64,000 bases of DNA from Alphaproteobacteria bacterium (GCA_965226475.1 CBDDDJ010000004.1:1821963-1885962), one strand, 5' to 3'; shown: positions 1 through 46,488, counted from the first letter of the stretch. Notes: generated from the letters alone by a model not told the origin. Made by a program: numbers and translations.

Positions 1-430
1 GGCGGCAGCCCCCGTCCCCGGTCATAGAGCGTCGCCAGATTGAACTGCGCGTCGCCATGTCCCGAAAGCGCGGCGGCGAGATAGAGCCGCGCCGCGCTTC
101 CGTCGTCCCGCTCGACCCCCTGGCCGAAGAGATACATGGTGCCTAAGTTGCTTTGCGCCGCCGCGTGCCCCCGTTTTGCCGCCCGCCGCCACCACGACAC
201 CGCCTCGACGTCGCTTTGAGCGACACCCTGTCCCTGCGCATGCATCAGCCCGAGGTTGTATTCCGCATCCGCATGCCCGGCCTCGGCGGCCTTCAGGAAC
301 TCGATCCGCGCGTTCTCGAAGTCGCCGCCGCGAAGCGCCTCGACGCCGGCCTCGAAATCGGCCTGGGCGAAGCCAGGGGCAAGGAGTGTCAGAACGAAAG
401 CCAGCACGGCGGCGCGGCGGACGAGACTCA
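1..430 (-). CDS. Sel1-like repeat (TPR-like) protein with N-terminal signal peptide; the 3' part of the gene runs off the window start
   Basis: The reverse-strand translation begins MSLVRRAAVLAFVLTLLAPGFAQA (signal peptide). It then shows repeated AxxGxAxAQxNLGxMYxxGxGV modules typical of Sel1 repeats. The ORF is open to position 1. Confidence 0.7.
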
Positions 431-653
431 TGGATCGGATCGATGACATCTGCATTCCCTCCGGCGAACGGCACCTCCCACATGGGCCATTACGCCGCCG
501 GGGGCAATCGGCCGCGCGCGCCTCGGGCGGAACGCCGTCGATTTCGCGCCGCCGCCGAAGCTTTGAGTACAACCGGCGGCCCGGTGCATCTAGAATGAGA
601 GGCGATTCGTTCGTTGCTCTCCCTGGTGGTGTTCCAGACACAGGTGGCCCAGC

Positions 654-2285
654 ATGCGCCTCGACAATTCCATCCGCCCGATTCGCCTCGTCCTCGCTTT
701 CGCGTTCGCGTTCCAGTTCGCCGCCTTCGGCGCGCTGGCCGGTCCGGTCGCCGAGCAGTTGCAGCTCCGCCTCGATGCCGCCGACGCGGAGGCCTCGGCG
801 GGCGATCCCGACGTCGACTTGGGGGCGGTCCGGGATTTCTATCTCGGGCGGGCGTTCCGCCCGCTCAGGATCGACGAGGACGGCGCCACGCTCGCGGCCC
901 GAATCTTCGCGGCGCGGCTCGCCGCCTCGGAATCGGACGGCCTCTATCCGGTCGACTACGACGCTGGCTTCTTCGCCGAAAACCTGGAAGCGACGGGGCC
1001 CGCGGAGCGCGCCGACCTCGAGTTCAAGTTGAGTCGGGCGCTGCTCGCCTATGGGCGGGATCTCTCGGCCGGGCGAGTCGATCCGGCGCGGGTCGATTCC
1101 GAACTCCACATCCGGCCGAGCGCGGTACCAGCGGAAGAGCTTTTCGCCGCCGCCGAAGGGGTGGACTTCGCCGCCTACCTTTCGGCACTCGCACCCCAGA
1201 GCGTGAACTACGCGCGGTTGAAAGCGGCCTTGGCCGACTATCGCCGACTCGCCGGGCGGGGCGGCTGGGGCCGGGTGCCCGACGGCGAGACACTGAAACC
1301 GGGAATGCGCGACGCGGCGATTCCCGCGCTCCGTCGACGTCTCGCGGCGGGCGGAGACCTGGCGCAAGACGCCATTGCCTCCGAGGCGTACGACGAGACG
1401 CTGGAAGAGGCGGTTCGGCGCTTCCAACGGCGCCATGGCCTCGACGTCGACGGCGCCGTCGGCAAGATGACCCGGAAGGCCTTGAACGTGCCGGTGACGG
1501 CGCGGATCGAGCAGATGCTGCTCAACATGGAACGGCGGCGCTGGATGCCGGACGACCTCGGCCGGAGCTACGTTTTCGTCAACATGGCGGATTTCGTGCT
1601 GAAATACGTCGTCGGGCCGAAGACCTACCTGGATACCCGCGTCGTCATCGGCAAGCCCTATCACCGCACGCCGGTATTCAGCGACCGGATGCGCTACATC
1701 GTCATCAATCCCTACTGGACGGTGCCGCCGTCGATCGCGCGCAAGGAAATCCTGCCGAAACTCAAGAAGAACGCCAATTACCTAGCCGAAAAGAACATAA
1801 AGCTTTTCAGCGGCTGGAACGCCTCGGCCGCCGTGCTCGATGCAACGACGATCGACTGGTCGGCGGTGAGCCCGCGCGGCTTCGGCTACCGCCTGCGCCA
1901 GGAGCCGGGCAAGGGCAACGCGCTCGGCACGCTGAAATTCATGTTCCCGAACCGCTTCAACGTCTATTTGCACGACACGCCGGCCCGCTCGCTGTTCAAG
2001 AAAGCGGTCCGCAGCTTCAGCCACGGCTGCATCCGGGTCGAGAATCCGGACGAATTCGCCGCCATGCTGCTGCGTGACCACGAGGGCTGGTCGCGGGAGG
2101 AAATCCAGGCCGCGATTGCCTCGGGCAAGCGCCAGGTCGTCACCTTGAAGACGTCGATTCCAGTCCACCTAACCTATCTCACCGCCTGGGTGAACAAGGA
2201 CGCCAGCGTGCATTTCCGCGACGACATCTACGACCGCGACAAACGCCTACGCAAGGCGCTCGACCACCTGCAGCGGCCGCTTTAG
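654..2285 (+). CDS. L,D-transpeptidase of the YcbB/LdtD family, with a peptidoglycan-binding domain and a YkuD catalytic domain
   Basis: 543 aa with an N-terminal signal peptide. It has a PG_binding_1-like segment (RFQRRHGLDVDGAVGKMTRKALN). The YkuD domain ends ...NVYLHDTPARSLFKKAVRSFSHGCIRVENP, with the catalytic Cys in the SHGC motif. Confidence 0.85.
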   Translation: MRLDNSIRPIRLVLAFAFAFQFAAFGALAGPVAEQLQLRLDAADAEASAGDPDVDLGAVRDFYLGRAFRPLRIDEDGATLAARIFAARLAASESDGLYPVDYDAGFFAENLEATGPAERADLEFKLSRALLAYGRDLSAGRVDPARVDSELHIRPSAVPAEELFAAAEGVDFAAYLSALAPQSVNYARLKAALADYRRLAGRGGWGRVPDGETLKPGMRDAAIPALRRRLAAGGDLAQDAIASEAYDETLEEAVRRFQRRHGLDVDGAVGKMTRKALNVPVTARIEQMLLNMERRRWMPDDLGRSYVFVNMADFVLKYVVGPKTYLDTRVVIGKPYHRTPVFSDRMRYIVINPYWTVPPSIARKEILPKLKKNANYLAEKNIKLFSGWNASAAVLDATTIDWSAVSPRGFGYRLRQEPGKGNALGTLKFMFPNRFNVYLHDTPARSLFKKAVRSFSHGCIRVENPDEFAAMLLRDHEGWSREEIQAAIASGKRQVVTLKTSIPVHLTYLTAWVNKDASVHFRDDIYDRDKRLRKALDHLQRPL

Positions 2286-2543: not shown

Positions 2544-3482
2544 TCAGACGTGTTGTCCGACGATGTCGCGGTAGTCGGCGGGTCGCAGGCGCGTGCCGAT
2601 GCCGAGCAGGGTATCGAAAGCCGTTGCGGTGTGGCGGCGGCGGTTCCAGCGGAACACGAACTCGTCGAGGTAGCGGCGCAGATGGGCGCGGCGCAGGCCA
2701 TGGAAGGTTCCGAGCGCCCAGCGCTTCAGGTTCGAGAACACACGATGGATCCACGTCAGCACGAGATGGGCGGGCGTTGCACCGACGACCTTGGGCTGGT
2801 GGTCGTGGTCGGGCAGGCCGCAATAACCGCTCCAGCCATCGGTAATCACCCGCGCGCCCGGCGCCGAGGTTCCGGCAACGAAGGCACGAAGGCTGCGCGC
2901 GGAGAAATCCCCGATCGGCGCCAGCCGGATGCGGCGTGGCTCGCCCTCGGGCGATAGCTCGACCGCGCCGGCAATGCGCATCTTGCCTTGTGGGCTGCGA
3001 CCTTGCCCGCCTGTGGCCGGGTCTTTTGCGGTGCGGAACGGGAGGGTGGCCTCATCGATCTCGATCAGGTCCTCAAGCAGGCTGCGATCCGGATTGACCA
3101 TGGCACGGCGCAGCTTGTGCAGCAGGAGCCAGGCACTCTTGTAACTGCCGAGCCCGAGCTGGGCCTGGAGTTGCAGGGCGGAGATACCATTCGAGTGGCT
3201 GGTCACGATGTGAACGGCCATGAACCAGGTCTTCAGGGGCAAGTGGCTGCGGTGCATGATCGTGCCTGCGGTCACCGAGGTCTCCTTCCCGCAGGCCGCA
3301 CATTCCCAGCTCGCCCGGCGCCGCTTCAGTTCCCAGCCCCTGTCATGGCCGCAGGCGGGGCAGACGAAGCCGTCGGGCCAGCGCCTGGCGGCGAGATGCC
3401 GGGCACAGGAGGCTTCATCGGGAAAGCGCGCCTCGAAGGCGGCGCGGGACATGGGGCGGTCATATTTCCAGCGGCTGGCCAT
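2544..3482 (-). CDS. IS1595-family DDE transposase
   Basis: 312 aa. The N-terminus has a zinc-ribbon (FVCPACGHDRGWELKRRRASWECAACGKE) typical of the IS1595 transposase N-domain. The C-terminal half shows the DDE_Tnp_IS1595-like segment (ITDGWSGY ... HRVFSNLKRWALGTFHG ... RYLDEFVFRWNRR). Confidence 0.85.
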   Translation of the reverse strand: MASRWKYDRPMSRAAFEARFPDEASCARHLAARRWPDGFVCPACGHDRGWELKRRRASWECAACGKETSVTAGTIMHRSHLPLKTWFMAVHIVTSHSNGISALQLQAQLGLGSYKSAWLLLHKLRRAMVNPDRSLLEDLIEIDEATLPFRTAKDPATGGQGRSPQGKMRIAGAVELSPEGEPRRIRLAPIGDFSARSLRAFVAGTSAPGARVITDGWSGYCGLPDHDHQPKVVGATPAHLVLTWIHRVFSNLKRWALGTFHGLRRAHLRRYLDEFVFRWNRRRHTATAFDTLLGIGTRLRPADYRDIVGQHV

Positions 3483-3599: not shown

Positions 3600-4010
3600 A
3601 TGGCCGATAATTTTGAGAAGAAAGTTGCTGTTGATGGGCCTGTGGTAAATGCGGGCGAGCTTGGCTCGTCCACGTTTTCCCCAGGCCAGGCTTTGCCGGC
3701 AGGCCCGCTGGGACTTGGCCAGCGATGGACGGTGGCGCGCAAGCGTGAGGTCGTTCCGCGGCTTTTGCGTGACGAGCCGGTGCAACTTCTGTCGCGCCAG
3801 TTGGGCGTAGAGATCTTCCGGCTCGAGCAGTGGCGTGAGAAAGCGATCGGCGGGATCGACGCCTCGCTCAAGCGACGCAAGGGCGATCCGGTGCAGGCGG
3901 AACTGGATAGCGCCATGAAGCGGATCGGAGAGTTGACCATGCAGGTGGAACTGCTGGAGGCCAAGACGGAGACCTTCGGCCCTTTGGGGCGGCGGAGGTC
4001 GCGGCGATGA
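3600..4010 (+). CDS. IS3-family transposase OrfA (small HTH/leucine-zipper protein)
   Basis: 136 aa, MADNFEKK...RRKGDPVQAELDSAMKRIGELTMQVELLEAKTETF. It overlaps orfB in an ATGA arrangement. The orfB reading frame is open from 3911, which gives a roughly 100-nt -1-frame overlap typical of IS3 programmed frameshifting. Confidence 0.75.
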   Translation: MADNFEKKVAVDGPVVNAGELGSSTFSPGQALPAGPLGLGQRWTVARKREVVPRLLRDEPVQLLSRQLGVEIFRLEQWREKAIGGIDASLKRRKGDPVQAELDSAMKRIGELTMQVELLEAKTETFGPLGRRRSRR

Positions 4011-4912
4011 GTGCCGCCACCTCGCCCGGCACGGGTCTGGCCTACGGCCTGCGGCGGGTCTGCGCCGCCTGGGGCATGGCCCGCTCCTCGTTCTACGCCA
4101 TGACCTCCGGCCAGCACGCCGAGCAGCCGCCGGCAAAGCGTCGGGGACCGAAGCCCGCGATCTCGGACCAGGCGCTGCTGGTGGCGATCGAAGCCGACCT
4201 GGAGGCATCGCCCTGGGAGGGCGAGGGCTACCGCAAGGTCTGGGCTCGGCTTCGGGTCTGTCGCGACATCCGGGTTGCCCGCAAGCGGGTGCTCCGCCTG
4301 ATGCGCGAGAACAATCTGCTCTCGCCCCATCGCTGCCGCCGCCGTGGCGGCAATCCCCATGACGGTGAGATCATCACTCATGCCCCGAACCTCATGTGGG
4401 GCACCGATGGCGTTCGGGTGTTCACGGTGGACGACGGCTGGGGCTGGATCTTCACCGCCGTCGAGCATTGGAACGCCGAGTGTGTCGGCTGGCATGTCTG
4501 CAAGCGCGGCGACCGCTTCGCCGCCCTGCAGCCGATCTCCATGGGGCTTGCCGGGCTGTATGGCTCGACCGCGGCCGGCGCGGCTCGGGGGCTGGCCTTG
4601 CGGATGGATCACGGCTCCCAGTATCTGTCGGACCACTTCACCAACCAGATCAAGTTCTGGGGCATCCAGCCGTCCTACGCCTTCGTCGCCGAGCCCCAGA
4701 CCAACGGCGTCGCCGAGCGGTTCAATCGCACGCTGAAGGAACAGATCATCCATGGTCGCATCTACCGCAACATCGCGGAGCTGCGGGACGCCGTCCGCGA
4801 CTTCGTCGAACTCTACAATGCCCAGTGGATCGTCGAAAAGAACGGCTACCTGAGCCCCGCTCAAGCTCGTCAGGCGTGGCACGCCGCGATCTCAATCAGG
4901 CCCGCCGCGTGA
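4007..4912 (+). CDS. IS3-family transposase OrfB (integrase catalytic core, rve domain)
   Basis: 301 aa. It has an N-terminal HTH (GLRRVCAAWGMARSSFY) and a DDE core (...WGTDGVRVFT..., ...RMDHGSQYLSDHF..., ...QTNGVAERFNRTLKEQ). It lies in the -1 frame relative to orfA. Confidence 0.85.
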   Translation: MSAATSPGTGLAYGLRRVCAAWGMARSSFYAMTSGQHAEQPPAKRRGPKPAISDQALLVAIEADLEASPWEGEGYRKVWARLRVCRDIRVARKRVLRLMRENNLLSPHRCRRRGGNPHDGEIITHAPNLMWGTDGVRVFTVDDGWGWIFTAVEHWNAECVGWHVCKRGDRFAALQPISMGLAGLYGSTAAGAARGLALRMDHGSQYLSDHFTNQIKFWGIQPSYAFVAEPQTNGVAERFNRTLKEQIIHGRIYRNIAELRDAVRDFVELYNAQWIVEKNGYLSPAQARQAWHAAISIRPAA

Positions 4913-13400: not shown

Positions 13401-14090
13401 GTCCCGCGCCTTGGTCGAGAGCATGGCGACCTTGTCGCGGCTCTGCCCGAAGGCCTTCAGCGTGGCGAGGCCCTGGACGCAATCGAGGAATTCGGCGGCG
13501 AAGGCCGCATAGGCCCGTTGCCGTTTCTTCGAATTGTCGCTGTCCCAGCGATGGAAGAGGGCGGGGGCGACCAGGGTCAGCAGCGCGAAGGCGACCATGA
13601 GGATCGCCGTCGGCGCGTCGAGGAAGAGCATGAAGACCAAGATCACCAGCGGCGTCAGCGCGGCGACGAAAAGCTGCGGCAGATACTGGCCGAAATAGGT
13701 CTCCAGCTGCTCCACCCCGTCGACCAGGGAGAGGATGACGTCGCCGGTCCGCGTCAGGCCGAAATGCGCCGGCCCGAGGGCGACGATTCGGTGGTAGAGC
13801 TTCTCGCGCACGCGGGCCTGCACCAGCGCCGCCGTCTCGTGCGCGGTCATGGTGCGCCAGTGTTCGAGCCAACCGCGCACGATCATCACCGCCGCCACGA
13901 GGGCGAAGGGCAACAGCAGTTGGGAGAGACCGACGCCCTGGAACACCTTGCCGATCAGCCAGCCCAAGAGCGCCAGCCGCGCAACCCCGAAACAGGTGGC
14001 GATCAGCCCGACCAGCACGGTGAGCGCGATCCGCCCCCGCACCCCCTCGGTGAAGCCCCAAAGCCTGGAATCGAAATACACGCTGCCCAC
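10491..14090 (-). CDS. Fused ABC exporter with two tandem TMD-NBD halves
   Basis: 1199 aa. There are two Walker A motifs (GASGAGKSS and GPSGAGKTT) and two signature motifs (LSGGQRQRVAIARALL and LSGGQRQRVAVARAFL). Each NBD is preceded by about six hydrophobic helices. Confidence 0.85.
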   Translation of the reverse strand: MGSVYFDSRLWGFTEGVRGRIALTVLVGLIATCFGVARLALLGWLIGKVFQGVGLSQLLLPFALVAAVMIVRGWLEHWRTMTAHETAALVQARVREKLYHRIVALGPAHFGLTRTGDVILSLVDGVEQLETYFGQYLPQLFVAALTPLVILVFMLFLDAPTAILMVAFALLTLVAPALFHRWDSDNSKKRQRAYAAFAAEFLDCVQGLATLKAFGQSRDKVAMLSTKARDLFRSTMWVLATNSLARGITDAGIALGAAATVALGAWRVAEGQMEITVLLVILMLGTEVFRPLRDLRSLLHQGMVGQSAAEGVTAILAAEPAITDARDAQPVEGGLVPEIRFEAVGFSYPGGRQAAHSGLDFTVEAGKRIGIVGASGAGKSSIVRLLLRLYDPNEGRITIGGVDLRALRQADIRRAIAVVNQDTYLFHGTIRENLAFGKPDASEADLIEAARAANAHDFIAMLPQGYDTVIGERGVRLSGGQRQRVAIARALLRDAPILVLDEALSAVDAENEAIISQALDRLMRGRTTLILAHRLSSVIDADRILVLDAGRVVESGCHAELMAKGGIYHQLMGRQARDGQVTIDDGAETAPPPAEDLVVGGAATGLLEPTDAIIRAEGMGWGRAIMELMRLVIPWKGKLALTFLFGVTRVIAFIAIGVLSGLAVYQLKVGGDPVPALVWLAVMAPAAGILHWFESWIAHDMAFRLLAEMRVALFEQLDRLAPAYLLRRRTGDLVAAATQDVETVEFFFAHTIAPAFVAVLVPGVVLATLFVFGWPLALALAPFLAVVATSPFMLRKRVDELGSRARESLGDLNAHAVDTVQGLTEIVAFQREAARGEDFARRMARFHAVRLPFFRDLTRQMTVLETMTGLGGLAVVVAGAAQVRAGALEAGLLPILTLLAMAAFLPISEIANIGRQLADTLGSTRRVYAIHDEEVAVTDGPGTGAAKAGAPALALDGASFQYHGANRAALSDVSFEVTLGETVALVGPSGAGKTTIAHMLMRFWDPDRGRVLMDGRDLRDFALDEVRRRIALVAQDTYLFNDTLRANIKMARPGASEAELEEAIRRAALSDFTASLPQGLDTPVGERGMQLSGGQRQRVAVARAFLKDAPILILDEATSHLDAINERAVHGALDDLMHDRTTVVIAHRLSTVREADRIVVLADGRVAEVGSHQELLARGGLYARLVARQTAGGSEAAAE

Positions 14091-14149
14091 CTCGAAACGC
14101 TCCGCGCCCGATCGATCGGCGGGCGCGGTTCCCTGTCTTCAAACTAGCA

Positions 14150-14640
14150 TGGATCACCGCGTCGGATTACTTCATTGCTCGACGGGCCAGTTGGGTGGAC
14201 GGCTGTTCTGGATCTCGACTGGAAGCCCAGCAGGTCGGCGACGCGGTCGGGGAAGGCGCCGATGTCGAGGCCCGTGCCCGTGGGGCCGAGGGCGCGGGGG
14301 GGCGGGCGCTCCCCGGCGCCCGGCCGAGGCCGAGATCGATCCGGCCAGGATGGAGCGTCTCCAGCATGCGGAAGCTTTCCGCCACCTCGAGGGCCGAATA
14401 ATGGTTGAGAATCACGCCGCCGGGGCCGATCCGCATGTGGCGCGTCAGCGATGCGACGCGGCCGATCAAGATCTCGGGCGCGGTGCCCGCCAGGCCCACG
14501 GCATTGTGGTGTTCGGCCAGCCAGTAGCGGTGATAGCCGAGGCCGCCGCAGTGGCGGGCGAGTTCCAGGGTCTCCCGATTTGCTCCCGCCGCCGTGCCGC
14601 CTTCGACGATCGGCGACTGGTCGAGGACGGCGAGCTTCAC
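14150..14640 (-). pseudogene. MsnO8-type LLM-class flavin-dependent oxidoreductase, N-terminal remnant, frameshifted at a G7 run and 3'-truncated
   Basis: From a GTG start, the minus-strand translation reads [110 protein letters not shown]. Homology then continues in another frame (...ALGPTGTGLDIGAFPDRVADLLGF) after the G7 tract at 14296-14302. The ORF stops at about 14150, whereas full-length family members are about 330 aa. Confidence 0.6.
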
Positions 14641-15617
14641 GTCGCCCGTTTGGCCATCTCGGCGGCTTCCATGGCCCCGAAATCGAACGGCCCCTCGGCC
14701 GCGACGCGGCGCAGCTGGCCGTTCCGCGCCTTCACCATCCAGGTGAGCGCCTCGTTGTAGGGCGTCGGGATACCGAGCGCCCGGCCCTCCCGCACCACGG
14801 CGCCGTTCAGCGCATCGATCTCGGTCGGCCGGTTCGCTTCCATGTGCTGCAGCATGGAGGGTTTGTTGAACTTGAAGGTATAGGCCTTGATGTGGCCGAG
14901 GGGGTCGGGCGTGGCGAGGCGGATGCCCTTGGCCTCGGCGATGGCCAGCGCCTCCTCGACGCATTTCGTCTGCATCAGATCGGCGCCCTCGTGCAGCGGG
15001 ATTTCGCCGACGCGCAGTTCCAGCAGCGCGCAGAGCGGGTTGAGGGCGCAGTTGTGAATGAACTTGCTCCAGCAGATACCCATGACGTTGTCGGAGATCT
15101 CGGGTCCCAGGCCGCCGCGCTCCAGCGCCGCGACAAGGGCCTGCAGCCGCTGGCTGGTGCGCCCGTCGAGCTCGCCCAGGTAGGTCTTGCCGGCGTGGCT
15201 GTGGCGCGGCCGGCCGGGCCCGAGCATGAGCGCGCTGTGGTAGCTGACGCCGCCCAGCACGCGCTCTTCGCCCAAGGCGGCGACCAGCGTCTCGACGTTG
15301 CCGATGCCGTTCTGCAAGGTAATGGCGATACCATCGGGTTTCAGCGCCGCCTTGGCGGTCTGGGCCGCGGCATCGCGGTTGTTGGTATCGGTCTGCACGA
15401 TGGCGACGTCGTAGTCGCCCGGCCGGTCGAGGCGCTCGTGGATCGGCACTTCCACATGCACCGCCTCGCCGACGTCGTCGAGCACGAGGCCGTTCTCGCG
15501 GATGGCCTGGACATGCTCCGCCCAGGTGTCGATCAGGGTGACATCGACCCCGGCCTTGGCCATCAGGCCACCGTAAGTCCCGCCCATGGCGCCCGCGCCG
15601 ATGATGACGATCCGCAT
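14637..15617 (-). CDS. panE: 2-dehydropantoate 2-reductase (ketopantoate reductase)
   Basis: [30 protein letters not shown]..., then ...[33 protein letters not shown]. Its TGA stop overlaps the GTG start of the downstream LLM remnant (GTGA). Confidence 0.8.
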
Positions 15618-16887: not shown

Positions 16888-18603
16888 ATGTCCGAGACGA
16901 CCAATTCCGAATCGTTCGGCGCGCTCTGGCCGGGCGGGCCTTATGCGGTGGACATCGTCGAGCCGGCGCCTCGGCCTTCGAGCTTGGCGGGCAAGACCAT
17001 CGGCTTTCTCTGGGACGACATGTTCCGGGGGGAGGAGATCTTTCCCGTGATCGAGGACGAGATCCGCGCCCGCCATCCCGACGCGCGCTTCGTCGGTTGG
17101 CGGGCTTTCGGCTCGATCTTCGGCGGCGAGGAACACCGGGTGCTGGAGGAATTGCCCCGCCGCTTGGCGGAGGAGAGGGTCGATGCTGTCGTTTGCGGGG
17201 TCGGCTGTTGAGGCCCGTGCACGCCCGCCGTGATGCGGGCGAGCGCGGTGGTCGAAAAGGCCGGTATCCCGACGGCATTGCTGGTCTGTGACGGCTTCCT
17301 CGGCCAGGGGGCGGTGACGGCGGGCGGGCTGGGTATCCGGGCGCTGCCCATCGCCCGCCTCGTCGGCCATGTCGACGGGCAGGATGCCTCGGAACTTCGC
17401 GACAACGTCCGCCGCGTCACCACCGGCGATGTCGTGCGCCACCTGACCAGGGGCCCCGAGGCGGGCACGAATGGCGACGATTTCGCCTCGGGCGACATCG
17501 TCGCCGAAGGGAGCTTCGACGCGGTCAACGAGATCTTCGAGGCGCGCGGTTGGACCGACGGTCTGCCGATCGTGCCGCCGACGGCCGGCAAGGTCGCCGC
17601 CTTCCTGGCCCGGACCGACGACGACCCCGAACGAGTCATTGGCACGCTGCGGCCCGCCGGGCGGGCGGCCACGGTCGGGAACGTCGCGGTCAACGGCGTC
17701 ATGGCCGGCTGCCGGCCGGACTACATGCCCGTACTGATCGCCGTCGCCGAGGTGCTGGCCGATCCCGGCTACGGGGTCGAACACAGCGGCGATACCACGG
17801 GCGGCGACGCCCTGATCATGCTGTCTGGCCCGATCATCCAAGAACTCGGCTTCTACACCGAGAACGCCTCGATGCGGGAGGGCACCCGCGCCAACACCAG
17901 CGTCGGCCGCTTCCTGCGCCTCTTCCTGCGGAATGTCGCCGGCTGCCTGCCGGGGGCCGGCGACAAGAGCACCTTCGGCAATCCGGCCAAGGTCGTGCTG
18001 GCGGAACACGAGGACGAAGTCCGGAAATTGGGCTGGCCGCTTTTCGCCCAGGACCGGGGCTTCGACGCTGGTACCAACGTCGTCACCATCGCCCGGTTCA
18101 CCAGTGGCGGCGTCATCGGCTCGATCTACGGCAACGACCCAGAGGTGATCAGCGCCTATCTCGCCGACGGCCTAGTACGCCATTCGGGCTGGGAGCTGAT
18201 CTTCACCGTCGGCTTCGCGCCGGGCACCTACCGCCCCTTGCTGGTGATCAGCCCCATGGTGGCCAAGACCTTGGCCCGCGCCGGCTGGTCGAAGGCGGAT
18301 TTCCGCCAGGCACTGTTCCGCCACGCCCGCCTGCCGGCCTCGAAAATGGAGACTTTCCTCGGCCCCTGGACCAACCTGTTGCCGGGCCGCCCGAAGCTCG
18401 GCCAACTGGTGGCGGCGGGAAGCGCCGATCCCCTGTTCGCCGAGGCCGACGATCCCGACCGCCTGGTGCCGATCGTGAAACGCGCGGAGGACATCATGAT
18501 TCTGGTGAGCGGCGATCCGTTGCGCTCCAACGCCTTCGCGCTCGCCAGCAACGGCATGCACGGCTTCCCGACCAGCCGCGAGATCCGCCCGCCGGAGCGT
18601 TGA
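16888..18603 (+). CDS. Candidate selenoprotein of the UGSC-motif type. The two ORFs 16888-17211 and 17230-18603 are in the same frame and are joined by a single in-frame TGA at 17209-17211
   Basis: The read-through translation is ...VDAVVCGVGC-U-GPCTPAVMRASAVVEKAGIPTALLVCDGF... A hairpin lies 10 nt downstream of the TGA. The second ORF has no Shine-Dalgarno sequence. A second selenoprotein-like gene occurs in the same window. The alternative interpretation is two separate genes. Confidence 0.5.
17222..17241 (+). promoter_or_regulatory. Candidate bacterial SECIS stem-loop downstream of the in-frame UGA
   Basis: The stem is cgcccgc/gcgggcg (7 bp) and the loop is cgugau (containing G and U). 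It starts 11 nt 3' of the UGA. Confidence 0.4.
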
Positions 18604-40515: not shown

Positions 40516-41150
40516 GCCTTGATCGGGAAGGCGCCGCGGACCGCGTCGGCCTGTTCGGCCGTCAGCGAACGGGTACGGTGGCCTTGCAGCAGCAGGTGCA
40601 GGCGGGCGGTCTCCTCCAGCTCCTCCACCGCGTCGACCGCAGCGGAGAGCCCGCTGCCCGCCACCACGGGCCCATGGTTGGCCAGCAGCACCGCATGGTG
40701 GCGCGTTGCGAAAGCGGCGACCGCGTCGGCCAAGGCCGGGTCGCCCGGCGGGAAGAAGGGCACCAGCGGCAGGCGGCCGATCCGCATCACGTAATAGGCG
40801 GTGAGCGGCGGCAGCACGTCTTGCGGATCGACGTCGGCGAGGCAGCCGACCGCGACGGAGTGGGTCGAATGCAGATGCACCACCGCGCCCGCGCCCGCGC
40901 GCTCCCGGTACATGGCGATGTGCAGAAAGGCCTCCTTAGTCGGCGGATCGCCCGAAAGATGCCGGCCCTCGGCGTCGAGTTTGGAGATCGCCGCCGGGTC
41001 CAGCGTGCCGAGGCTGGAGCCCGTGGGCGTCATCAGGAAGCCGTCCTCGACGCGAACCGAGATGTTGCCGGTGGAACCGCCGGTGAGCCCCCGCTCGAAG
41101 ATCGAGCGGCCGTATTCCGCGATTCTCTCGCGTGACCGGGTCTCGCTCAC
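40512..41150 (-). CDS. Class II aldolase/adducin-family protein (OtnC/YgbL-like 3-oxo-tetronate-4-phosphate decarboxylase type)
   Basis: It begins with GTG (VSETRSRERIAEYGRSIFERGLTGGSTGNISVRVEDGFLMTPTGSSLG) and continues HLHSTHSVAV... Confidence 0.75.
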   Translation of the reverse strand: MSETRSRERIAEYGRSIFERGLTGGSTGNISVRVEDGFLMTPTGSSLGTLDPAAISKLDAEGRHLSGDPPTKEAFLHIAMYRERAGAGAVVHLHSTHSVAVGCLADVDPQDVLPPLTAYYVMRIGRLPLVPFFPPGDPALADAVAAFATRHHAVLLANHGPVVAGSGLSAAVDAVEELEETARLHLLLQGHRTRSLTAEQADAVRGAFPIKA

Positions 41151-42417
41151 GACAGCACCTCGAAGGCCTTGATGAAGAAGTCCGGGGCGCCGAAGTTGCC
41201 TGATTTGAGCGCCAAGGCCAGGGGATCGGCGCCGAGACTCGCGGTCCAGGGCACGCCGGGATCGATTTGCGGGCCGATCTGGATACCTGTGACGCCGAGG
41301 GCCCGGACCACCGCGCCGGAGGTTTCGCCGCCCGCCACCACCAGACGGCGGACGCCATCCGCGACCAGTCCCTGGGCGATCCTGGCCATCGCCGCCTCGA
41401 TCATCTCGCCCGCGGTCTCGCGTCCGAGCGCGTCCTGGACGCGGGCGAGGTTCTCGGGCGGCACGCTCGAATAGATCAGCACCGGGCCCGACGCCAGTTT
41501 GTCGCCCGCCCAGGCGAGGCTCTCGGCGACCACGTCCTCGCCGGCAGCGAGCCGGAGGGTATCGAGCGCGAGGTGCGGCCGCTTGGCCTTTATCGCCTCG
41601 ATCTGGCCGAGGGTCGCGCGACTGCAGGAGCCGGCCAGCACCGCCTCCCCCCCCCCGCGATCGCGGGCAACGCGTCGGACACCCGCCCCGCCGGCAGCAT
41701 CCCCCGGCGGCGGAAATTTTCCGCCAGCCCGAGGGCAACGCCGGAGCCACCGGTGAGAAGCGCCAAATCGGCCGAGGCCTCGCCGATCGCCATCAGGTCC
41801 GCGTCGCTCAGCGCATCGACGATGGCGTGACGCCGGCCCTCGGCCCTGAGCGCGCCATAGGCCGCGCGAATCACCTCGGCGCCGGCGGCAACGGTGTCGT
41901 AGCGGACCAAGCCGACGGGGTGCGGGGTCTGCGCCGCCAGCACGCGGACCAGGCTCGGGTCGGTCATCGGCGTCAGGGGGTGGTCCTTCATGCCGCTTTC
42001 CGACAGCAGCTCCTCGCCGACGAAGAGATAGCCGTGGCAGATCGTCCGACCGGTCTCGGGGAAGCCCGGGCAGGCGATGGTGAAGTCGGCGCCGAGCGCC
42101 TCCAGGAGCGCATCGGCCACCGGGCCGATGTTGCCGGCCGGGGTCGAATCGAAGGTGGAGCAGTATTTGAAGAAGATCTGTCGCGCTCCCGCGGCCCGCA
42201 GCCAGCGGAGGGCCTGCAAGGACTGATCGATCGCGTCCGGGGCGGGGATGGTGCGGGACTTGAGCGCCACGACCACCGCATCGACGTCCGGCGGCGGTAA
42301 ATCGTCGGCCGGCGCATCGAATAGCTGCACCGTCGACATCCCCTGGCGCACCAGGGTGTTCGCCAGGTCGGTGGCGCCGGTGAAATCGTCCGCGATCGCC
42401 CCTAGCAGCACCGCCAT
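41147..42417 (-). pseudogene. Four-carbon acid sugar kinase (OtnK/YgbK family, DUF1537 plus C-terminal nucleotide-binding domain), split by a frameshift inside a C10/G10 homopolymer at 41647-41656
   Basis: The N-terminal frame reads MAVLLGAIADDFTGATDLANTLVRQG...AIAGGG. The C-terminal frame continues (G)MLAGSCSRATLGQIEAIKA... The junction falls exactly in the poly-Gly codons of the G10 run. Confidence 0.65.
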
Positions 42418-45753: not shown

Positions 45754-46401
45754 CTAAACCAGGGCCCGGACGTCGGCGAGCGTCTTCTCGGGCTCCGGCC
45801 GGTGGGTGTAGTCGACATCGATATCGGCCGCGCGGACGATACCGTTCGTATCGACCACCAGGCGGGCGGGCATCGGCAGGGTCCAGCCGTCGTCGCCGTT
45901 GTAGCGCGGCAGGTCGATGTCGCGGGAGGCATAGATCTCGCGCAACGCGCCCGTCACCTCGAAGCGGAGACCCAGTTGGGCCGCATAGGCGTTCCCAGGG
46001 TCCGTCGCCATGTGAAAATTGATCTCGTGGCGCTCGCGCATCGCCCGATTATGCTCGACGAGCTGCGGCGTGATCGCCACCAGGCTCGCGCCCATCGTCT
46101 CCAGTTCGCCCAAAACCGCCTGCAAAGCATACAGCTCCGCATTGCAGTAGGGTCACCAGACGCCGCGAAATACCGTCGGGACGGCGGGACCCCGGGCCAG
46201 CAGCTCGGTCGAGACCACCGGCTGGCCGTGCACGTCGTCGAGGGCGAAGGCCGGCAGTGCCTCGCCCACCTTGATCGTCGAATCGAGAATGCCGGTGGCG
46301 CGCAAATCGCGGGTCGCCCCGCCCATGACCGCGCGTTGCTCCTCCGGCACGCGGGTTGCCGCCATCTGGCGGATCTTCTCCAACTGGTCGTCGAGTGACA
46401 T
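45754..46401 (-). CDS. Peroxiredoxin-like (AhpC/TSA-fold redoxin) candidate selenoprotein. A single in-frame TGA at 46153-46155 replaces the peroxidatic Cys
   Basis: Reading through gives ...PAVPTVFRGVW-U-PYCNAELYALQAVLGELETMGASLVAITPQ... The expected motif at this position is F/Y-R-G-x-W-C-P-x-C. ORF callers split the gene into 46153-46401 and 45754-46125. A stem-loop lies just 3' of the UGA. Confidence 0.6.
46120..46147 (-). promoter_or_regulatory. Candidate SECIS-like stem-loop 3' of the UGA in the Prx-like gene
   Basis: The minus-strand RNA is CUGCAAUGCGGAGCUGUAUGCUUUGCAG. It has a 6-bp outer stem, a 3-bp inner stem and a G/U-containing apical loop. It begins 5 nt after the UGA. Confidence 0.35.
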
Positions 46402-46488
46402 GTCTTCCTCCTTTAGCGAACGTACCTTTACAGGAATTCACTCGGGCTTCGCCACTCCCGCCCGGTAAATTGGTCGCGAGCCGGTCGC

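Follow-up and report, generated by a model that had tools for sequence, protein, structure and literature searches.

A predicted Prx-like UxxC selenoprotein gene and its SECIS hairpin in an alphaproteobacterial genome

In a 64,000-nucleotide stretch of alphaproteobacterial DNA (hereafter the window), a gene of the minus strand at 46401..45754 is interrupted by an in-frame TGA codon. Judged by the standard of comparative genomics, on sequence data, it is almost certainly a genuine selenoprotein gene, and we hold it very probable that the locus encodes, as a single gene, a cytoplasmic redox protein with a thioredoxin fold that belongs to the family of Prx-like UxxC selenoproteins. The observations that bear directly on this are the conservation of the TGA, purifying selection on both of its sides, the existence of homologues with cysteine (Cys), and a covarying hairpin specific to the selenocysteine (Sec) forms.

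Gene layout and conservation of the in-frame TGA

The gene has 215 codons followed by a TAG stop (45756..45754). An AAGGAGG Shine-Dalgarno sequence, read from the sequence at 46408..46414, lies 6 nt 5' of the ATG at 46401..46399, where translation would begin. The minus-strand translation contains a single internal stop, the TGA of codon 83 (46155..46153; the plus strand reads tca at 46153-46155), in the context PTVFRGVW-TGA-PYCNAELYALQ. A preliminary description of this DNA, made from the sequence alone, had reported a redoxin-fold gene split by one TGA at this place, and the split was plainly seen. The TGA, predicted to encode Sec (U83), opens a UxxC motif whose second residue is Cys86 (codon 46144..46146). 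With the TGA read through, the product matched Pfam AhpC-TSA (PF00578; E 1.4e-19, 70.7 bits against a cut-off of 26) over residues 45-191, spanning the TGA, and Redoxin (E 2.5e-14). Since the two matches together cover residues 44/45-191/200, the redoxin domain is uninterrupted across the TGA.

The list of open reading frames (ORFs) gives two pieces instead, 46153..46401 (82 aa, from an ATG) and 45754..46125 (123 aa, from a TTG at 46125), in agreement with the earlier remark that the downstream ORF needs a TTG start to exist. The UGA might accordingly be decoded with no selenium, by near-cognate Trp or Cys read-through or under a reassigned code, or the locus might make two small proteins of 82 and 123 aa. 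Gene callers do output two ORFs, and no Sec machinery was seen in the 64-kb window. Against this, 25 of the 41 predicted window genes have TGA as their normal stop, and the genetic code is therefore standard; the TTG of the 123-aa ORF falls within the hairpin described below and has no Shine-Dalgarno sequence or other ribosome-binding site; and two proteins would sever the redoxin domain through its active site. Moreover, the hairpin fits the SelB-type model of a Sec insertion element (SECIS), and one orthologue adjoins selD. We therefore consider decoding of this kind very unlikely.

A homology search returned two kinds of protein. The first were full-length "peroxiredoxin-like family proteins" of 215-227 aa, mostly from Alphaproteobacteria and 43-58% identical; they align end to end, and the comparison with Cys-containing orthologues that had been advised placed the Cys of their WCPYC motif at the TGA column. 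The second were about 16 fragments of 119-132 aa, 67-98% identical, which matched only the C-terminal 55-57% of the query. In the DNA behind these fragments (L001-L004, L044-L049), an 82-codon ORF is followed by the TGA, after which the frame continues, both halves being conserved. The TGA stands at the same codon in L001-L004 (approximately 98-99% identical and of the same species as the window; L002 has about 99.5% DNA identity), in L044 (85%) and L045/L046 (80%), and also in the more distant orthologues L047-L049 (65-70%) and L005 (60%). At one further locus (L050:1-784), the C-terminal 123-aa part is conserved from AELYALQ on, and in place of the N-terminal half, the UGA, and PYCN stands unrelated sequence; either the 1.1-kb contig is chimeric or the copy is truncated.

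The preliminary description had named, as the result that would speak against it, orthologues truncated at the same place with no conservation after the stop. What we found is the reverse: against five orthologues, dN/dS lay between 0.14 and 0.48 in codons 1-82 and between 0.14 and 0.27 in codons 97-215. Synonymous divergence was low in the stretch between (codons 84-96), with a dS of 0 against L044, compared with 0.35-0.42 elsewhere in the gene, and of 0.12 against L045, compared with 0.51-0.58 elsewhere.

Metagenomes were scanned with a degenerate DNA pattern for F-R-G-x-W-TGA-P-Y-C-N, which matched at least 120 contigs, and the frame was open for approximately 131-137 codons past the TGA in almost all of the matches listed. 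At least 123 independent Sec-form loci, falling into at least 96 clusters at 90% identity, are all homologous to the window protein (E <= 3e-8; 25-67% identical), and at least 84 of them align over 195 aa or more at 38-67% identity. Their G+C content, among the matches listed, extends from 0.38 to 0.71, so that many lineages carry the Sec form; that of the 64-kb window is 68%, and the window's homologues and gene content indicate an alphaproteobacterium. When species-representative genomes were scanned, L005 was the only Sec-form locus, and all others were Cys forms, which served as the negative control for the hairpin described below.

The gene at 41147-42417 (minus strand), of the SBD_N/NBD_C (four-carbon acid sugar kinase) type, is present as two overlapping ORFs in different frames, because of a 2-nt length difference from its counterpart in L001 (99.4% identical), where the gene is intact and encodes 422 aa (13716-14984). 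The cause is a frameshift or else an error of assembly, so errors or decay do exist in the window assembly. Near the start of the window there is also a patch of mobile elements, with an IS1595-type transposase (2544-3482, minus strand) and an rve-type integrase (4007-4912, plus strand).

The likely frameshift in that gene, relative to its close relative, lends some colour to the view that the TGA is itself a nonsense mutation in an ordinary Cys-type Prx-like gene, or a sequencing error. We regard this as extremely improbable, given that more than 120 independent assemblies, at 25-99% identity, share this TGA, that selection is purifying on both sides, and that the hairpin downstream of it is conserved in the TGA forms and peculiar to them. 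The pseudogene, sequencing-error, reassigned-code, and two-gene readings were all rejected on conservation, dN/dS, and stop usage, since the TGA is conserved, both halves are under purifying selection, and TGA is an ordinary stop in this DNA.

The hairpin downstream of the UGA

A core hairpin is found on the minus strand at 46121..46141, with an 8-bp stem (UGCGGAGC/GCUUUGCA) and the apical loop UGUAU, as expected from the stem-loop with a G/U-containing loop noticed earlier. It begins 11 nt past the UGA, and its loop 19 nt past it; counting the U of the UGA as +1, UGCGGAGC at +15..+22 pairs with GCUUUGCA at +28..+35. An extended form (46115..46148) adds the lower stem ACUGC/GCGGU, in which +8..+12 pair with +37..+41. 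This lower stem occurs only in the window's own clade, and the extended fold was also obtained for L044-L047, L099, L120, and L153. The predicted energy of the core is -10.1 kcal/mol (z -3.8; none of 200 shuffles was equally good), that of the extended hairpin is -17.3 kcal/mol (z -3.8), and that of a 48-nt form is -22.5 kcal/mol (z approximately -3.8). The consensus bacterial SECIS model calls for a loop of 3-9 nt, a stem of 4-16 bp, a distance of 16-37 nt from the UGA to the loop, and a minimum free energy of -7.5 kcal/mol or lower, with a G in the first two loop positions, then G or U (PMC13188914). The window hairpin agrees with the model in every respect, having a 5-nt loop, an 8-bp stem, a 19-nt spacing, and -10.1 to -22.5 kcal/mol.

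To follow the hairpin through the relatives, the 119 distinct Sec-form sequences among the matches listed were aligned without gaps (alignment A2), the 6-bp core being defined as +17..+22 paired with +28..+33. All six core pairs are kept in 105 of the 119 sequences and at least five in 116, and a few outlier sequences have an equivalent hairpin in a shifted register; the conservation in related genomes that the preliminary description had wished to see checked is thus present. At the alignment pair 23-39, 56 sequences have C-G and 53 have U-A, in which a rare Leu codon (CUA) faces a Met AUG, and other pairs alternate between G-U and A-U and between G-C and G-U. Pairing fell from 85.6% to 27-52% when the 3' partner was slid by 1-3 columns. 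The covariation is concentrated in essentially two large clades and thus reflects few independent events, and the shuffle control ignores relatedness. In the loop, position 2 is a G in 118 of the 119 sequences, and the next base is G or U in all but two of these.

The Cys-form homologues that have the same peptide (CPYCNAEL.AL) form only two to five of the six core pairs, and the complete core was found in none of the 18 Cys-form homologues in which it was sought. Because the same peptide occurs there without full core pairing, the hairpin is not a by-product of the amino-acid sequence.

Like the fdhF-type SECIS of Escherichia coli, the window hairpin lies directly 3' of the UGA inside the ORF and has a small apical loop with a G and then a U. 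The stem of the minimal fdhF element also starts 11 nt after the UGA. The window hairpin differs from it in that its sequence is unrelated, it has no bulged U, and it matches no Rfam model: no relevant Rfam family came up when the whole window was scanned at the gathering threshold, nor when 45950-46300 was scanned permissively.

Taken with the established bacterial mode of Sec decoding, this anatomy suggests how the message would be read. The mRNA just past the UGA would fold into the SECIS hairpin (8-bp stem, loop U-G-U-A-U), the hairpin would recruit SelB-GTP-Sec-tRNA(Sec), and the UGA at codon 83 would be read as Sec and not as a stop.

A different state of the same site was observed in one of the two closest full-length homologues (protein P0002, L171:79-726; 58% identity), which has Ser, encoded by TCG, at the Sec position (HW-S-PFC); P0003 also has Ser there. 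L171 nevertheless keeps, in the register of the SECIS, a hairpin with seven perfect base pairs (GCAGAGC-UGAUC-GCUCUGC). Together, the hairpin and the Ser codon suggest a recent replacement of Sec by Ser, giving a peroxiredoxin-like SxxC motif.

Active site, fold, and family

The preliminary description took the Sec to stand in place of the peroxidatic Cys, and this part of it has to be revised. When the protein was aligned by phmmer with solved peroxiredoxins, their S/T-x-x-Cp motif fell on U83-P-Y-C86 ("fSpvC" in the BCP structure 2cx3 and "mTpgC" in BcpB, 5epf), which puts Sec at the Thr/Ser position and Cys86, whose column is invariant in 74 homologues, at the peroxidatic position of BCP/PrxQ. 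The WCPHC of ResA aligns with W-U-P-Y-C. By these alignments, Sec83 stands for the N-terminal Cys in a CxxC of the thioredoxin type, at the place of the peroxiredoxin Thr/Ser, and Cys86 is the homologue of the peroxidatic Cys. The P-x-x-x-T/S-x-x-Cp(U) motif itself is absent: the protein has R79-G-V-W-U83-P-Y-C86, Arg79 replacing the Pro and Sec83 the Thr/Ser. Further along, Arg180 (codon 45862..45864) lies in a strand motif, LPMPAR-LVVD, that resembles the R-x-x-F-x-I-D of peroxiredoxins, and its column is at least 90% conserved in the 74 homologues. By motif and strand position it is probably the counterpart of the peroxiredoxin catalytic Arg, and, being nearly invariant, it leaves a peroxidase-like activity open.

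The fold was taken from the AlphaFold model of P0007, a Cys homologue with 51% identity (pLDDT 96.5). It is a thioredoxin/peroxiredoxin fold with three N-terminal helices (residues 3-41), in which Cys83 lies just before the helix 84-95 and Cys86 in its first turn. The nearest solved folds are the BCP/PrxQ and AhpE peroxiredoxins (3hjp, 5epf, 4gqf/2cx3, and 1xxu; Foldseek E 8e-14 to 1e-10, target-normalised TM-score 0.80-0.91), followed by thiol-disulfide oxidoreductases of the ResA type. With the BCP/PrxQ and AhpE proteins the window family shares a Cys at the Cp position and the probable catalytic Arg; it differs from them in its low identity (14-23%), in lacking the PxxxT/S motif, and in having an extra N-terminal extension of three helices (residues 1-41) and a C-terminal helix. 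The scores against specific NCBIfam models were all below their cut-offs: 26.2 bits against 140 for BCP thiol peroxidase (NF006960), 28.7 against 170 for ResA (NF002854), and 22.8 against 120 for the SelL-related redox protein (NF040769).

The same selenoprotein might be a true peroxidase, as in the functional reading of the preliminary description, with Sec83 as the peroxidatic residue; Cys86 would then be the resolving one. The P0007 model matches BCP/PrxQ/AhpE best, ahead of the ResA type, Arg180 would sit at the place of the catalytic Arg, and in seven contigs of one soil clade a gene for an AhpD-like protein lies shortly upstream. However, the alignment gives C86 and not U83 as the peroxidatic position, the Pro and the Thr/Ser of PxxxT/SxxC are missing, the literature classes the motif as thioredoxin-like, and the scores with the NCBIfam peroxidase and ResA models are far below their cut-offs. 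A peroxidase of this kind is thus possible, but we lean against it.

In the reading that we prefer, that of a thioredoxin-fold redox protein, the product would be a chain of 215 residues in which W-U83-P-Y-C86, the active site, lies where the first helix of the thioredoxin fold has its N-terminus. Sec83 would be the exposed nucleophile that attacks an oxidised substrate, whether a disulfide or a peroxide or sulfenic acid, and would then form a selenenylsulfide with Cys86, to be reduced again by a thiol reductase, for which thioredoxin and an AhpD-like partner are examples.

That Prx-like proteins are a known family of bacterial selenoproteins, as had been stated from the sequence, is well supported by the literature. 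Prx-like UxxC selenoproteins were reported in the Sargasso Sea's selenoproteome, where the motif was classed as thioredoxin-like (PMC1088965). The Global Ocean Sampling (GOS) survey lists "Prx-like 1" (pfam00578, UxxC) with 225 selenoproteins and 2,740 Cys homologs (PMC2398784), and a 2026 review has a Prx-like thiol:disulfide oxidoreductase (PF00578, UxxC/UxxU) under "predicted with high confidence" and not among the verified families (PMC13188914). The window gene has in common with Prx-like (1) the PF00578 domain, a Sec that comes first in a thioredoxin-like UxxC, Cys homologues far outnumbering the Sec homologues, a bacterial SECIS right after the UGA, an occasional clustering with AhpD-like genes, and an occurrence in both marine and non-marine metagenomes. 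No defining difference emerged from this comparison with the published description of the family, whose reference sequence is WP_010940744.1. The window form has about 215 aa, with a 40-residue helical extension at its N-terminus.

Two other groups of selenoproteins are close to this family. Sec-Prx (TxxU) is of the same Pfam family and fold and is likewise a Sec-dependent redox protein; in it, however, Sec replaces the peroxidatic Cys, whereas the window protein is UxxC, with Sec at the Thr position and the Cys kept. SelL/Prx-like2 (UxxU) has a distantly related Prx-like thioredoxin fold and Sec in an xCxxC-type motif, with two Sec residues where the window protein has one.

A bolder proposal is that the subfamily of about 215 residues, with its helical extension, its U/C-P-Y-C motif, and its Prx-type Arg, is a mechanistically distinct hybrid of peroxiredoxin and thioredoxin oxidoreductase, in which the "Thr" position supplies a selenol and the "peroxidatic" position a thiol, the two acting in concert, and that it is far more widely spread in soil and marine bacteria than has been recognised. 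We think this improbable as it stands. If it were true, the Ser variant of L171, with its SECIS hairpin still in place, would show an evolutionary route, one still in use, by which UxxC can become a Prx-like SxxC site.

Selenium use, gene neighbourhood, and annotation

Scans of the approximately 50 predicted proteins of the 64-kb window with Pfam and NCBIfam did not find selA, selB, or selD. The window has no tRNA gene at all, hence no tRNA-Sec, and none was found in 120 related loci either; in close relatives, no selA, selB, selD, or tRNA-Sec lies within 10 kb of the gene. Other loci do point to selenium. As the preliminary description indicated, the window holds a second Sec candidate, a 571-codon ORF of the UGSC family on the plus strand at 16888..18603, with an in-frame TGA at 17209-17211 (VVCGVGC-U-GPCT). 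It matches Pfam PF24696 across the TGA, scores 40 bits with NCBIfam NF041046 (below the cut-off of 125), and has a strong hairpin with a CGUGAU loop after its UGA. Beyond its UGSC domain of about 180 aa, the ORF continues into a fused C-terminal domain (about 390 aa) that matched no family; a "UGSC/Unknown_1 fusion" is named in the GOS paper (PMC2398784).

In L048, a PrdB/GrdB-like ORF (1184-2395; PF07355) has a TGA at 1646-1648 (LLCPV-U-PNC) and lies approximately 330 nt upstream of the Sec-form Prx-like orthologue, from which a GST_N_2 gene separates it, so that two selenoprotein candidates stand within about 2 kb. In L063, a 2.1-kb metagenome contig, an Ndh-SelD fusion gene (126-1469, plus strand; AIRS/AIRS_C, C-G-G-C motif) adjoins the Sec-form orthologue in convergent orientation. 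The UGSC candidate, the L048 gene, and the selD of L063 give indirect support to Sec use in the organism of the window. Its description as "selenoproteome-rich" has just the two candidate sequences of the window as its basis.

Within the window, the gene is flanked upstream by an AA_synth gene (PF06684) and downstream by a type II HAD hydrolase and SDRs, an order that is kept in same-species contigs and partly in L047. A partner gene conserved throughout was sought across 124 loci and not found, the recurrent neighbours (AhpD-like, MerR, SDR) being clade-specific. In the soil clade mentioned above (L074, L102, L125, L129, L140, L149, and L155), the AhpD-like CMD protein, which has a GCGYC motif, is encoded on the same strand 28-80 nt upstream, and such a gene is found farther upstream in L057 and L058. 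In L057, L058, L069, L125, L138, and L156, the opposite strand carries a gene for a MerR-family regulator 16-64 nt downstream, and in L057 and L125 this gene is followed by one for a MerA-like flavoprotein disulfide reductase. Clustering of Prx-like with AhpD-like genes has been noted before (PMC2398784; PMC13188914), and the AhpD-like neighbour fits both this and a role in thiol/peroxide redox chemistry.

The finding is nothing new in kind, as descriptions of the family and of its UxxC motif date from 2004-2008 and the family has been known for some twenty years; the window gene is a further, mis-annotated member. The systematic under-annotation that the preliminary description suspected was encountered throughout, every public assembly examined giving either the two ORFs of 82 and 123 aa or the C-terminal fragment alone. 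With such calls the active-site half of the protein is lost and the selenium use of the organism goes unrecorded. The SECIS, with its fixed register (core +17..+22/+28..+33, loop UGK..), could seed a covariance model by which these annotations might be repaired automatically. As one pattern scan yielded at least 120 contigs, with G+C contents of 38-71%, the Sec form is common in environmental bacteria.
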